From: a virus
Taxonomy: Duplodnaviria > Heunggongvirae > Uroviricota > Caudoviricetes
Strand: one strand, 5' to 3'
Length of the DNA stretch: 64,000 bases
Virus record (IMG/VR): IMGVR_UViG_2913112809_000002
Positions 30,001-36,000 of the stretch are shown here, piece by piece; within the stretch, counting starts at the first letter, position 1; each line of letters begins with the position of its first letter. The position numbers are program-made.

Positions 30001-33000
30001 CAGGTTGATGAGTAAATCTGTTTCTGCGCGATCAACGTCGCGCTGTGATAGTTTGCTGCAGCTTGTTTGTTCCATTTCTTACTATTTCCATAGGTAAATA
30101 ATCACTAATACCCATCTTTCGATGAGCGCTTAATTAGTTACCGCGTTGTCGGCGGTGCAGATTGATAAAGAGCGGTGTTACTTATGCAGCCAGAAGGTTC
30201 TTTTTGCTTATTTCAAGCATTTCGCTTGCTTGATATTTGCCACCAGAAATCTCTTCGATTTTTGATGCGTATTTAGTTTTCCCAAAAAACTCAGTCTTAG
30301 GGAGGAAGCCGTTTTTGAGCCACTTATAGACAGCCCTTTCGCTAACTCCACAAGCCTTCGCAACTTCAGGGATGCCGACACCTTTAATCGGCTCATCAAG
30401 ATTTTGCATAGGAATATCCTTTTTCGTACTTTCAGTACGCATTATGATTGAACTGAAAGTTTTTGCAAGTGCTTTAGTATCGTACTCATGGTTCAGAATG
30501 AAAAAGTGCGCAAAGAATTCGCCCAGCGGCTAGCGCAAGCCTGTAAAGAAGCTGGTCTTGATGAACATGGTAGGGGGATGGCCATAGCCCGTGCCCTTTC
30601 TCTTTCGTCCAAAGGCGTTAGCAAATGGTTTAATGCTGAGTCTTTACCGCGTCAGGAAAAAATGAATGCGCTTGCGAAATTTCTAAACGTTGATGTTGTT
30701 TGGCTTCAGCACGGCACTTCGTTAAATGGAGCGAATGATGAAGATACTCTTTCATTTGTTGGCAAATTAAAAAAAGGGTTAGTGCGCGTGGTTGGTGAGG
30801 CAATTCTTGGTGTTGATGGTGCCATCGAGATGACCGAAGAGCGCGATGGGTGGCTCAAAATTTATAGCGATGATCCTGATGCCTTTGGTCTTCGTGTGAA
30901 AGGAGACAGCATGTGGCCCAGAATAAAATCAGGAGAATATGTACTCATTGAGCCTAACACCAAAGTATTCCCGGGTGATGAGGTGTTTGTCAGAACCATC
31001 GAAGGACACAACATGATCAAGGTTCTTGGCTATGACAGAGATGGAGAATACCAATTTACAAGCATCAACCAGGACCACAGACCAATAACGTTGCCTTATC
31101 ATCAAGTAGCCAAAGTGGAGTATGTGGCTGGTATTCTGAAGCAATCTCGCCATCTGGATGACATCGAGGCAAGGGAGTGGCTGAGAGATTCCTGACATCA
31201 AAGTCATAGAGTGAGTTTTCTAGTTAGAAATAGTGGTCAATGGGTACGCGTAGGTAAACCGTTTAAACATAATAAACAAGCCATATAAGATGAAATAAAT
31301 CATGAGCGATAAAGAGTTTAAAGTACTTAATTTTGATGACTTTGCTCATTATTTGAGCACATTGAACGGCGAACAAATTTGTCCAATGTGTATGGAAGAG
31401 TCATGGACGCTTTTCACCCCAAACAAGCTTCCTCCAGAAGACGAGGATAGGTATGTAATAAGTTCTATCCCAGGATCACTTATTTCAAGTAAAAGACCTG
31501 AAAAATCAAATCTCTTCTTCAGAAGTTACAACAACGATGTCCTCCTGATGCAATGCAGAAATTGTGGATACATGGCATTTTTTAATTATAAAAAAGTCCA
31601 AGAAAACCTTGAGTCAGGGGATTATATAAAAAAAAGAAGATATAGATATGGTGGATGAAAATGACAAATCAGAAGACTGATTTCTTCCGTCCAATGGAGT
31701 ATGATAACAAATATGAGCAATTTGGTGTTATAGAAGCACACAGGAATGGTCGCTCTACTCCGTCATATCAGCCAGGCACCATTGGTAAGGATATCCCGGT
31801 TATTATTGCGCATAAGTTAAGCGATCAACCAGCAGAGGGTGAGTCACAGATGAGCGTAAAATCACTGTCACGTTGGGAGTTTTGGCTAGGGATTTTCACT
31901 GCCATTATTGGGATATTTTCCATTGTTGTAGGAGCAACGTGGACAATTTCTAATAATATCAATGATAAGATTAATGCATCAAGACAAGAGCTAACTGGGA
32001 ACATCCAATCCAGTCGAGCAGAAATCACGGCAAGAATTGACAGGCTCGAAGATAAGATGGAGTCTAATTTCAAAGAAACATCATCGAGCCTGTTCAAAAT
32101 ACAGGCAATTCTAGAAGCAAAATCCGACAAAGAAAAATAAGAAAGTCCGGCCTCAGCGCCGGGTTTTCTTTGCCTCACGTTCCCCACACCTAATAACACA
32201 TTAACCAATTGTATTTATTGAAAAATTGATAGATACAACTTGCTAAACCACGAAATTCTGATCCCTGCCGCATAACCTTCATCCGCAACATTTACAAAAA
32301 TAAATTTCCTTATATATCAAAATCATATTTCGTAGAGTTAATAAACCACAAAAATTTCGTACCAATAGTTCTTGATAATGTCGAACTATTGGTTCATTAT
32401 TATCGCCATCAGCAGGAAGCTGGAAGCCAAACGGAACAGATTGGCATGCTCTTTAACTTCGATGGGGCGCTGACAAAGCGCAAACAGATACCAAACGAGA
32501 TGGGTTTGGCGGTGATGTGAATTGCAGCTGCAACGACAGCAACCAGAAGATCAGCATCTGGCGCATCACCACCAAAGCCATTTCACATGAGGAAAACATC
32601 ATGACGGTAATCGTGTACGGAAAATCAACATTTGCAGGAAATGCCAAAACTCGCCGTCATGAGCGGCGCAGAAAGCTTGCTATTGAGCGTGATGCTATCT
32701 GTAACATCATTGATTCTATCTTCGGCACAGATAGTGAGGAACCTGTTCAGGAGGCCCCAAGAAAGCGTTTAAGCCTTTCTGAAAAAGCAATATCACTCGG
32801 AAGCCTTCGCTGCAAGAAGGCAGAAGAAGTCGAGCGTAAACAGAACCGTATTTACTACAGCAAGCCACGCAGTGAAATGGGTGTGACCTGTGTCGGTCGC
32901 CAGAAAATGAAATTAGGCAGCAAACCACTTATTTGAGGACTGATACATGAGAGTAAAAACTATGGGCGCAAGCCCATTAAGCGGTCGTATTTTTCAAGGA

Positions 33001-36000
33001 ACATTAAACACTGAAAAAGGAATGTGGGTAGGAAAAAAAGAAGATGTAACCGAACAGGCAGTTAAGGCAGTAACTGAACACCTGATGATAAAAGACCGGA
33101 AATATGCATACGAAACGAATGATGGCAAATGGGTGATAATAATGCATCAACTGGTTGATGAATTACCAGAAGAGTTTATTGCTGATTAAAATTATTTTGG
33201 CATAAACAACAGAAGCGAAGATGTTGACAGTTGGTAAGTCATATTCAACTAAAAATGGAAAGACATTTAGTTGTGAAAAAGATATTGGAGAAATAGACAC
33301 CATCTTTCCATTTGGTGGATGGGTATACAATTCTGATGGAAGCAAAGACAGATTTGCATATTACACCAGAGGAGGTGCTTATAAACCAACCAAATCAGAA
33401 TATGACTTAATTATTTAGCACAGAGAAGCACTGTGTATTCATTCCAACGAGTGAATACACGGAGCAATGTCGCTCGTAACTAAACAGGAGCCGACTTGTT
33501 CTGATTATTGGAAATCTTCTTTGCCCTCCAGTGTGAGGGCAATTTTTTTGACGGAGAAATTATGAAAATTACAGATATTCTGGTTAATCCAGATAATTAC
33601 GACCAATTCAATATCTCTACTAAATCGGTTGATTTGGGATGTGCAACTGTCAGCGCATGGCTACTTAATGGTAAACAGTTGGATAAATGCCTTGATGCAC
33701 ATATGACGGTTAACAGCTTCCTTGCAGAAAAGACACACTGGCAAGATGCTGGAGGGAAATATGCTGGATGGCTTGAAAGCATGGGATTTGAATATCAATC
33801 TGATGAAGGTTGGTGGAGCCTCATAGCTGTAACGCCTGAGACAATAGAATGCTTCGTTAAATACTCAAACGACGATGACTATAAACACCAGGTAGATTCT
33901 GCGATAGAAAGATATAGAAGAAAATCATTCAACCACGAAATATCATCAGTTCTTGATTTCATAGAAGTATTCAAATAAGCCGCCAAGAGCGGCTTTACCG
34001 CATACCAATAATGCTTCACCCGAGGCATTTCCGTTATGTGTAAATAAATAAGGAGCACACCATGCAATATGTCATTGCAGGGTGGCCTGTTGCTGGCTGC
34101 CCTTCCGAATCTTTACTTGAACGAATCACCCGTAAATTACGTGACGGATGGAAACGCCTTATCGACATACTTAATCAGCCGGGAGTTCCAAAAAATGGAT
34201 AAAACACTTATGGCTATCCAGACTAAATTCACTATCGCCACTTTTATTGGCGATGAAAAGATGTTTCGTGAGGCCGTCGAAGCCTACAGGAAATGGAGGT
34301 CAAAATGATTCCGGTAGAACTGGCGAAAACTCCAGAGTTAAGTCGATTAAAAAGAGAATATCACATTGCTGAGGCTCGTTACTGGCGTAAAGCGGGAGAT
34401 AAATCAAAGAAACAACTTTGTTTATGGCAGGCACAAAGAGAGCGCATGAATGAGCGCGAGTTTCTTTCCTCCCCATCCGAATTACCATTCTGAGGCAAAT
34501 TATGGGAACTGCGACATTAATACTCGGTGAGTCTGGCACCGGAAAATCAACCAGCATGAGAAATATCAATCCCGAGGAAGCAATACTTATAAAACCAATA
34601 GGCAAGCCGCTACCATTTAAATCAAAAGACTGGCTTGCATGGGATGCCAGAGCAAAAAAAGGAACCGTAGTTACCACTGACAAATGGGACGTAATAGTTG
34701 CCGTAATTAAGCGTGCTCACGAATACGGGAAAAGAATCGTTATTGTTGATGACTTCCAGTATGTGATGAGCAATGAGTTTATGCGCCGCTCAGAAGAAAA
34801 ATCGTTTGATAAATTTACTGAGATAGGCCGCCACGCATGGGAGGTGATTAAGGCTGCACAGGATGCGCCTGATGACCTGAGAGTCTATTTTCTTGCCCAT
34901 ACCGAAGAAACCCCTATGGGGCGTGTGAAAATGAAGACTATCGGCAAAATGCTGGACGAGAAAATCACTGTCGAAGGCATGTTTACTATAGTTCTTCGCA
35001 CTCTTACCCGCGATGACCAGTTCTTTTTCACCACGAAAAACAACGGTGCAGACACTGTTAAATCCCCAATGGGAATGTTTGATTCCAATGAGATTGATAA
35101 CGATCTCTCTTTCGTCGATGCCACTGTTTGTGATTACTACGGCATCAATAATGTTCATCAAATTAAGGAAAACGCCGCATGAGCAACGTGATTTTTACTT
35201 ATAACGAAGAAGCAGCACTGACCGCAGGACAAGGTGGTTTTATTAATGAAACTGGCGCTCATATTATTACCATTACTGAAGCAGAACTAAAGCAATCAGA
35301 AAAAGGAGCCAAATTTATTGAGTTTTCTGGAGAATCCGACGACGGACGTAAAATCCAATATCTTAGCGTTTGTGTTCAGAAAAATGACGGCACGGAAAAC
35401 AAATTTGGCGCAAATGTCGTTCACGCCATGATGGGGTGTGCCGGGATTGGGCAATTAACGCAACATATGGTTTCCGCCAGTAAATTTGTTGCACCTGAAT
35501 TTCATGGAAAGAAAATCGGGTTAGTGCTCCAGAAAGTATTAACCACAAACAAAAAGACTGGCGCAGACAGCTACCAGATGGAAATACGCATCCCGTTTAT
35601 TGCACAAACAGGTCAAACCCTTAAAGAAAAGGCGGAAGGCAAGCAACCAGAAACTATCGCCAACATGGTTGCCAGCCTCAAAGATAAAGACAATCGCTCT
35701 AAAAACGTAAGCCAGAATCATGCAGATGATTATGGTTACAGCCAGAACGATTACCCTCCTTTCTGATTATTGAAAATAAGGCTCCCATTATGCCAGCGCC
35801 TCTGTATGGTGCGGATGACCCGCGCCGCTGTTCCGGCAATTCCGTATTGGAGGTGCTGGATAAATTCAGAAAAAACTACGACCTGATAATGTCGCTACCG
35901 CAGGAAACGAAAGAGGAAAAGGAATTTCGCCATTGTATATGGCTTGCAGAGAAAGAAGAACGCGAGCGAATTTACCAGACATTAATCCGACCATTCCGCA

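Follow-up and report, generated by a model that had tools for sequence, protein, structure and literature searches.

Three separate accessory cassettes around the PreS/tL2a block in the early-left operon of a lambdoid prophage

Three open reading frames and a conserved noncoding block between N and cIII

The 64,000-nucleotide (nt) viral stretch IMGVR_UViG_2913112809_000002, here called the window, contains a lambdoid prophage whose early-left operon lies on the + strand. Between the antiterminator gene N and the cIII gene of this operon, at 32947-33978, are three open reading frames (ORFs) and a noncoding block shared with phage lambda. ORF1 (32947-33189, 80 amino acids [aa]) and ORF2 (33221-33418, 65 aa) lie upstream of the block, and ORF3 (33562-33978, 138 aa plus a stop codon) lies downstream, all on the + strand. 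An initial annotation of this DNA had placed three low-GC genes here, in the accessory stretch where lambda has ral, sieB, and ea10, and our analysis agrees on both points. The GC content is 0.38 for ORF1, 0.33 for ORF2, and 0.38 for ORF3, against 0.51 for the window and 0.45 to 0.46 for N and cIII. The annotated lengths of 80 and 65 aa were also correct, but the 139 aa given for the third gene included the stop codon.

Each ORF is preceded by a Shine-Dalgarno-like sequence: GAGGA 8 nt 5' of the ORF1 ATG, GGAG 7 nt 5' of the ORF3 ATG, and a weak one for ORF2. A longer ORF3 with a TTG start at 33508 was considered and rejected, as it would cross the terminator described below and is unsupported by eight full-length homologues. 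These homologues align without gaps and all begin M-[EKT]-[IL]-[TE]-[DE]-I. The minus strand across 32947-33978 contains no ORF of more than 62 aa.

The block between ORF2 and ORF3 (33428-33549, + strand) is a known element, composed of a 12-bp hairpin, the small RNA (sRNA) PreS/LPR1, and the terminator tL2a. Window positions 33428-33540 match lambda 34045-33933, in the ral-ea10 intergenic region, exactly over 113 nt. Beyond this identity, a four-phage alignment showed that the base of the terminator differs from that of lambda by one substitution and an additional T, a variant also present in phage mEp234. The hairpin has a perfect 12-bp stem (33433-33444 paired with 33449-33460) and a 4-nt loop. 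It does exist between the second and third ORFs, as first annotated, but 4 nt to the left of the original estimate of about 33437-33464. The terminator (33521-33549, + strand, downstream of N) reads TTGCCCTC CAGTGT GAGGGCAA followed by seven T, with an 8-pair stem at 33521-33542 and a T-run that extends to 33549. It was the only intrinsic terminator predicted on the + strand between 32100 and 34400. The 151-nt ORF2-ORF3 intergenic stretch folds at z = -4.6 against shuffles. This stretch is also the most conserved DNA of the region: more than 300 phage or lambdoid records match it at 95 to 99% identity, with differing flanking genes.

In lambda, the ral-ea10 intergenic region encodes the Hfq-dependent sRNA first called LPR1 and then PreS, which is about 88 nt long, is processed to about 68 nt, and has the terminator tL2a of the early-left operon as its 3' end (bioRxiv 10.1101/2024.10.31.621285). 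Lambda PreS is expressed in the lytic cycle, where it upregulates host dnaN at the level of translation and promotes replication of the phage DNA, and the study reports its conservation in 2,537 genomes (bioRxiv 10.1101/2024.10.31.621285). The identity of the window block to lambda LPR1 is above the 92% minimum that these authors use to define the element. Like lambda PreS/LPR1, the window block has a GC-rich stem and a poly-U 3' end (tL2a) at the same place in the early-left operon; unlike it, the block has different flanking genes. No family in Rfam 15 matches the hairpin and terminator block, and its identity is taken from the literature. With the published length of 88 nt, the 5' end of PreS would fall at about 33462, directly after the hairpin, and the sRNA would occupy about 33462-33549. 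The hairpin, which the initial annotation took for a separator of two genes, thus appears to flank or begin the PreS RNA and is not a gene separator; it may be a processing signal or belong to a precursor.

Two variable slots and the assortment of their genes

To survey the genes around this element, we searched with a 51-nt segment of PreS and gathered 120 viral contigs containing this anchor. A wider set of 136 PreS-bearing loci comprised these contigs, 15 previously fetched loci, and the window. We call the stretch from N to PreS slot A and the stretch from PreS/tL2a to cIII slot B. In the 136 loci, the gene directly upstream of PreS belongs to at least 20 families, among them Ral, a 156-aa protein, ORF2, DUF7446 (the family of ORF1), and the 107-aa orf184 of Silas et al. 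The gene directly downstream belongs to at least 10 families, the commonest being Ea10, a 55-aa ORF, and a 322-aa protein. In the window, ORF1 and ORF2 are slot A cassettes, with ORF2 the last one, directly 5' of the PreS block, and ORF3 is the slot B cassette. The right-hand border of the variable stretch is conserved. It consists of the cIII gene (34062-34202, + strand; Pfam Lambda_CIII, E 1.7e-29) and the cIII thermoregulator RNA element (34049-34107, + strand; Rfam RF01804, 86.4 bits).

The three ORFs are rarely found in one another's company. The 120 viral contigs contain Ral 49 times, Ea10 41 times, ORF1 six times, ORF2 four times, and ORF3 twice, and in none of them do ORF1, ORF2, and ORF3 occur together. 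Only three contigs in a large assembly collection have the exact window arrangement, which is present in assemblies GCA_005781185.1 and GCA_004745255.1, and among complete E. coli genomes none matches it over as much as 80% of its length. ORF1 and ORF2 are each found directly after ral in other phages, and ORF1 and ORF3 co-occur in E. coli EM10-18-28. The DNA matches are likewise mosaic, with ORF1 matching P22-like Salmonella phages, ORF2 matching phage 2G7b, and the PreS block matching more than 300 lambdoid records.

The three genes are inherited independently, have their own ribosome-binding sites, and are unrelated to each other. Therefore, they are separate cassettes that assort independently, and they do not form a single system. 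Together with the census, the sequence comparisons identify 32947-33978 as a two-part variable region of the lambdoid PL operon with PreS/tL2a as its fixed center. The lambdoid N-to-cIII stretch is thus best read as two variable slots anchored on PreS/tL2a. This layout also offers a handle for harvesting accessory genes, by finding the 113-nt block and taking both of its neighbors; in the 136 loci, the PreS anchor yielded more than 25 small gene families in addition to Ral, Ea10, and orf184.

Protein families of the three cassettes

ORF1 is a member of the Pfam family DUF7446 (PF24233), with a score of 90.4 bits against a cutoff of 24.1 and residues 4-71 aligned to profile positions 2-69 of 70. 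It is also a member of PHROG 1578. The initial annotation had recognized none of the three genes, which is right in that all are uncharacterized and that ORF2 and ORF3 have no Pfam match, but it overlooked this domain. ORF1 homologues form 40 clusters at 90% identity, from Escherichia, Shigella, Salmonella, Klebsiella, Yersinia, and Aeromonas, and the DUF7446 domain is present in all 40. The protein is 87% identical in P22-like Salmonella phages, where the DNA match is 93 to 94%. More distant relatives, at about 50% identity, occur in lytic Ackermannviridae (CBA120, Det7, and Dickeya Limestone-like phages). In prophages the gene is always in the early-left operon; members of the family follow ral in phage SE1 and N in Yersinia prophages, and in an Aeromonas prophage the relative is the first gene on its strand and heads a run of recombination genes. 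In Yersinia prophages, the gene after DUF7446 encodes a 183-aa protein of the pentapeptide-repeat class, to which some DNA mimics belong (loci L150, 4458-5009, and L152, 4340-4891), and one Yersinia prophage has two DUF7446 paralogues in the same operon (L151, 2314-2583 and 4001-4258).

The AlphaFold2 model of ORF1 is confident, with a predicted local distance difference test score (pLDDT) of 90.8. It has the order strand-strand-strand-helix-strand-strand, with the last two strands short. No significant fold match was found among solved structures, and there were weak matches to the PC4-like fold (the PC4/Sub1/YdbC single-stranded-DNA-binding fold). The ratio of nonsynonymous to synonymous substitution rates (dN/dS) among close alleles is 0.35, and it is unevenly distributed: codons 1-44 are nearly invariant (0.15), and codons 45-80 are at 0.98. 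ORF1 has an isoelectric point (pI) of 5.65. Its sole hit in PADLOC-DB, to DndE (E 0.008, 14.8 bits), is not credible. Homology to an 83-aa slot A protein was rejected, and a literature search on "DUF7446" and "PhiR11" returned nothing useful.

ORF3 matches PHROG 8967 over positions 1-138 of 138 (E 2.1e-86) and is the founding type of this family. A profile search of 1.8 billion representatives identified 62 members of about 125 to 150 aa, and all 56 aligned relatives match PHROG 8967. The core motif is DWGGxYAxWLxxxGIxxxTDNGWWSxxAVxPxNIxxF, and the few invariant residues are mostly aromatic or Gly. The 56-sequence profile found nothing among PDB sequences, and the 56 members searched singly found nothing in Pfam. 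An AlphaFold2 model built from nine sequences was poor (pLDDT 55) and consists, at low confidence, mostly of helices. The protein is moderately acidic, with a pI of 4.75 and a net charge of -9, and dN/dS among close alleles is 0.12. Membership in conserved protein families and dN/dS values of 0.35 and 0.12 mark ORF1 and ORF3, respectively, as real proteins under purifying selection.

Prophage copies of ORF3 invariably come first after PreS/tL2a, where lambda has ea10. The phage collection gave 115 hits, every one of them in lytic rV5-like Vequintavirinae and at 65 to 66% identity. One such orthologue is bas54_0089 of Escherichia phage MaxBurger (Bas54), 65% identical over 137 of 138 residues (E 7e-75). 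Its setting differs from that of ORF3, since it lies in a 136-kb strictly lytic phage, within an extended series of small genes that follows the DNA polymerase gene. In the HIDEN-SEQ transposon study, insertions were tolerated at 25 of the 27 TA sites of bas54_0089 when the host was E. coli K-12, and the gene was thus dispensable. The sole plasmid match to ORF3 is a 137-kb record, the same size as rV5-like phage genomes, and the plasmid search gave nothing that would connect ORF3 with plasmid leading regions.

Three further observations concern the ORF3 family. A distant 331-aa fusion member (P0079) is encoded between the genes for RecT and the RtcB RNA ligase, with its end overlapping the RtcB start (L143, 5001-7156). 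The gene of another distant member (P0071, 140 aa) and the start of an ERF recombinase gene overlap (L147, 701-1881). Sixteen records labeled "Campylobacter phage," including MG065644, MG065646, MG065647, MG065655, MG065662, MG065672, MG065674, MG065677, and MG065690, are 96 to 98% identical to E. coli rV5-like phages over the region of the ORF3 homologue, and their size of 137 to 143 kb matches as well. The Campylobacter host label of these 16 records appears doubtful.

ORF2 is an orphan of narrow range. It matches PHROG 15499 over positions 1-65 of 65 (E 7.1e-48), and it has no hit in Pfam, NCBIfam, or PADLOC and no credible sequence match in the PDB. Among 5.8 billion proteins it forms a single cluster at 90% identity. 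It is found in only four phage records, all of lambda-like E. coli phages, and it is common in E. coli prophages (221 index blocks). Its DNA matches that of phage 2G7b at 97.5%. Wherever its neighbors could be read, ORF2 is the last gene before the PreS block and is preceded by ral or by the gene for the 83-aa protein. Its start lies 39 nt after either of these genes in relatives and 31 nt after ORF1 in the window. The predicted protein has a pI of 7.8. We saw ORF2 at 16 loci overall, and the frame is intact in all 12 that blastn matched over the full length. Six sites vary (three synonymous and three not), giving four distinct alleles, and the dN/dS of 0.23 comes from too few sites to judge selection. 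The coding status of ORF2 rests mainly on the conservation of its frame.

The annotation of phage 2G7b has a 40-aa remnant of ral directly 5' of the ORF2 homologue (L001, 2365-2487). Other prophages have a full-length ral (66 aa) at the identical spacing of 39 nt from ORF2. The short ral of 2G7b seems to reflect either truncation or differing gene calls at the cassette joint.

Operon context, predicted expression, and possible function

A gene for a LexA-type repressor (30488-31195) lies 5' of a PL-type promoter candidate (TTGATA, 17 nt, CATTAT; 32372-32400, + strand). The candidate was found by a consensus scan, sits downstream of the repressor gene, and aligns with the annotated pL position of HK620. 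It is followed by nutL (32447-32481, + strand), identified by alignment with the annotated nutL of HK620, with a boxA-like TGCTCTTTAA (32447-32456, + strand) and the boxB hairpin GCGCTGACAAAGCGC (32467-32481, + strand). The N gene (32601-32936, + strand) encodes 111 aa from its ATG (Pfam N_peptide, E 6.2e-26; PHROG 271), and the start at 32601 agrees with the gene calls in identical contigs. N carries the arginine-rich motif GNAKTRRHERRRKLAIER, which we take to be of the P22 gp24 type; the boxB of nutL is presumably of the matching P22 type and fits this motif. The P22-type N and nutL on one side and the lambda-like PreS block and cIII region on the other form a clear mosaic joint within one operon.

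Several neighboring features are worth recording. A 6-bp hairpin (AGCCGC CAAGA GCGGCT, 33978-33994) begins at the last base of the ORF3 stop codon, where HK620 has tL2A/tL2B annotated before cIII; it has no T-run, and the terminator scan did not call it. At 34062-34308, the 46-aa cIII and a 79-aa ORF with a Kil domain overlap in different frames, and gene callers give either a 46-aa cIII and a 37-aa Kil or a single 79-aa Kil in identical contigs. Farther downstream, a 192-aa HNH_3-type homing endonuclease gene (36260-36838, + strand) is inserted after an Abc2-like anti-RecBCD gene (35790-36086) and a DUF2737 gene. Just 3' of the repressor gene, at the rexAB position of lambda, is a pair of overlapping + strand ORFs (31302-31658 and 31655-32140). 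The first encodes 118 aa with two Cys-x2-Cys pairs and is 34% identical (E 5e-23) to UDP0006 (AYR02207.1), an accessory gene in the screen of Silas et al. The second encodes 161 aa with a hydrophobic stretch and has a weak match to the PADLOC "2TM effector" (E 0.012). The two may be a prophage-expressed defense pair.

From this arrangement, all three ORFs would be transcribed from PL upon induction or infection. ORF1 and ORF2 should be expressed along with N, because tL2a is the first intrinsic terminator predicted downstream of PL. ORF3 lies beyond tL2a and so should need N-mediated antitermination to be read. A promoter scan found six sites against 6.0 expected by chance, so no promoter was predicted above the chance level; weak promoter-like sites lie at 33163-33192 and 33568-33597.

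None of the ORFs carries an enzyme signature, the DUF7446 domain of ORF1 being the only Pfam or NCBIfam domain among them. Without such a signature, they most likely act by binding a host component. We suggest that they encode nonessential, nonenzymatic small binding proteins that would act on host components early in lytic growth, and that their most likely action would be to neutralize or evade host defense, as Ral does from the same slot. The characterized occupants of the slot handle host defense, and relatives of the ORFs are among the small nonessential genes of lytic phages; for these reasons, an anti-defense or host-modulating role is plausible and is the best single guess. Ral is a restriction alleviation protein of this accessory region, and orf184 (AFM76385.1, Silas et al.) triggers the gop-beta-cII abortive-infection system. 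On balance, we consider the whole picture probable, that is, a variable PL region with independent cassettes for early, host-directed binding proteins, most likely anti-defense. For an anti-defense role specifically, we put the probability below one half.

More tentatively, ORF1 and/or ORF3 could found new families of anti-defense or host-takeover proteins, with ORF2 a narrow-range partner of Ral or an alternative to it. ORF1 has a confident predicted fold without a counterpart among solved structures, and ORF3 has no sequence relative there. Both families have been exchanged between temperate lambdoids and large lytic phages, of the Ackermannviridae and Vequintavirinae, respectively. If this were so, the rapidly changing C-terminal half of ORF1, with its dN/dS of about 1, would be an arms-race surface.

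Several points weigh against a role in defense or host modulation. In Pfam, NCBIfam, PADLOC, and PDB searches, and in the fold search with ORF1, the three ORFs have no similarity to known anti-defense, anti-restriction, or defense proteins, and PADLOC-DB returned nothing at all for ORF2 or ORF3. Searches for DNA-mimic anti-restriction proteins (Ocr, ArdA, ArdB/KlcA) gave no Pfam hit at E values up to 1, and ORF3 is only moderately acidic. The conserved motifs of the three ORFs are absent from the 200-gene accessory screen list of Silas et al. In the one clinical isolate compared in the Bas54 transposon study, bas54_0089 was not depleted (log2 fold change +0.57, q 0.90), and both of the Bas54 anti-defense genes of that study, bas54_0063 and bas54_0140, were. 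Association by position is weak evidence, as the operon also holds genes for recombination, cell division, and lysogeny. Finally, Rho-dependent terminators and weak internal promoters lie beyond the reach of our scans, and the timing of expression is an inference. The initial annotation's suggestion of anti-restriction or anti-defense factors thus holds for the region, which exchanges Ral and orf184, but gains no sequence, profile, or fold tie for these three genes. The remote homology and structure searches that it proposed did yield DUF7446 and the PHROG families, but no match to Ral, Ea10, SieB, a solved structure, or a defense protein.

An unlikely alternative is that ORF3, and perhaps ORF1 as well, assists phage DNA metabolism (recombination or replication) instead of countering defense, for example as a partner of the single-strand annealing protein, a nuclease inhibitor, or a single-stranded-DNA binder. 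The distant ORF3-family genes that adjoin annealing-protein genes (ERF and RecT), the position of lambdoid ORF3 a few genes upstream of a Sak4, Rad52, or ERF module, the acidity and low-confidence helical model of ORF3, and the weak PC4-like matches of ORF1 are all consistent with such a role. However, the early operons of temperate phages hold recombination genes anyway, so this proximity is expected. Moreover, ORF1 and ORF3 combine freely with four different recombination modules, and bas54_0089 is dispensable.

Expression of the ORFs in the lysogen, where they would protect the host from other phages as SieB and RexAB do in lambda, appears improbable to us. In its favor, sieB is present in this neighborhood in lambda, P22-like phages, and HK620; add-on genes acquired by phages typically have low GC; and there are the two weak promoter-like sites. 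Yet the ORFs lie on the PL strand, tightly packed behind N, and their surroundings hold promoter-like sites only at the chance frequency. In every phage examined (lambda, 1H12, HK620, and SE1), sieB is on the opposite strand, where 32947-33978 has only the short ORFs noted above. There is no credible PADLOC match, DndE for ORF1 being the only hit, and strictly lytic phages carry close relatives although they form no lysogen in need of protection.

For ORF2 alone, there is a slim chance that it is not a functional protein gene and that its frame is conserved for another reason, for example, as part of a precursor or promoter region of PreS. This reading would account for the single cluster without distant relatives, for the equal numbers of synonymous and nonsynonymous variable sites, for the weak Shine-Dalgarno sequence, and for the constant position directly 5' of the PreS block. 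It is at odds with a frame that stays intact at every full-length locus across four alleles and with a dN/dS of 0.23, albeit from few sites. In addition, PreS occurs without ORF2 in most phages (ORF2 in 4/120), and ORF2 was called as a gene in every assembly examined. That the three ORFs work jointly as one module, such as an inhibitor with its partners, is close to refuted despite their adjacency, common strand, low GC, and the pairing of ORF1 with ORF3 in EM10-18-28, because they never occur together in the census, each is found with other partners and has a different phylogenetic spread, and a terminator and an sRNA gene stand between ORF2 and ORF3.

We therefore return to independent accessory cassettes, probably for host-directed proteins. 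If any of them blocks a defense system, it would add a new inhibitor family and would serve as a useful marker too, as prophages share ORF1 and ORF3 with the lytic Kuttervirus and rV5-like phages of therapy and biocontrol. The finding itself is a routine accessory region in a known hotspot, not a new kind of system, and it will not surprise a specialist; what it offers is a set of three concrete candidates and the two-slot, PreS-anchored layout.

Four known occupants of this neighborhood provide comparisons. A SieB counterpart would be a gene of about 165 to 195 aa opposite PL, between N and ral, and on the minus strand across 32947-33978 there is no ORF of that size. Ea10 (DUF2528) has the same position as ORF3, first after PreS/tL2a and before cIII, and the two were never found together in the 120 viral contigs. 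Homology between them was ruled out (BLASTP E 5.0; hhalign probability 0.4%), and the function of Ea10 itself is not settled (bioRxiv 10.1101/2024.10.31.621285). Lambda Ral is, like ORF1 and ORF2, a small early-left protein, and it is the commonest last slot A gene before PreS (34 of 136 loci). The window prophage has no ral, and none of the three ORFs hits the Ral family (PF11058) at E values up to 1. The slot A protein orf184 is unrelated in sequence to the three ORFs but resembles them as a small uncharacterized protein from the accessory region of ral. Swappable accessory genes in the lambdoid early-left hotspot are a well-known kind, and ORF1, ORF2, and ORF3 are uncharacterized members of it.

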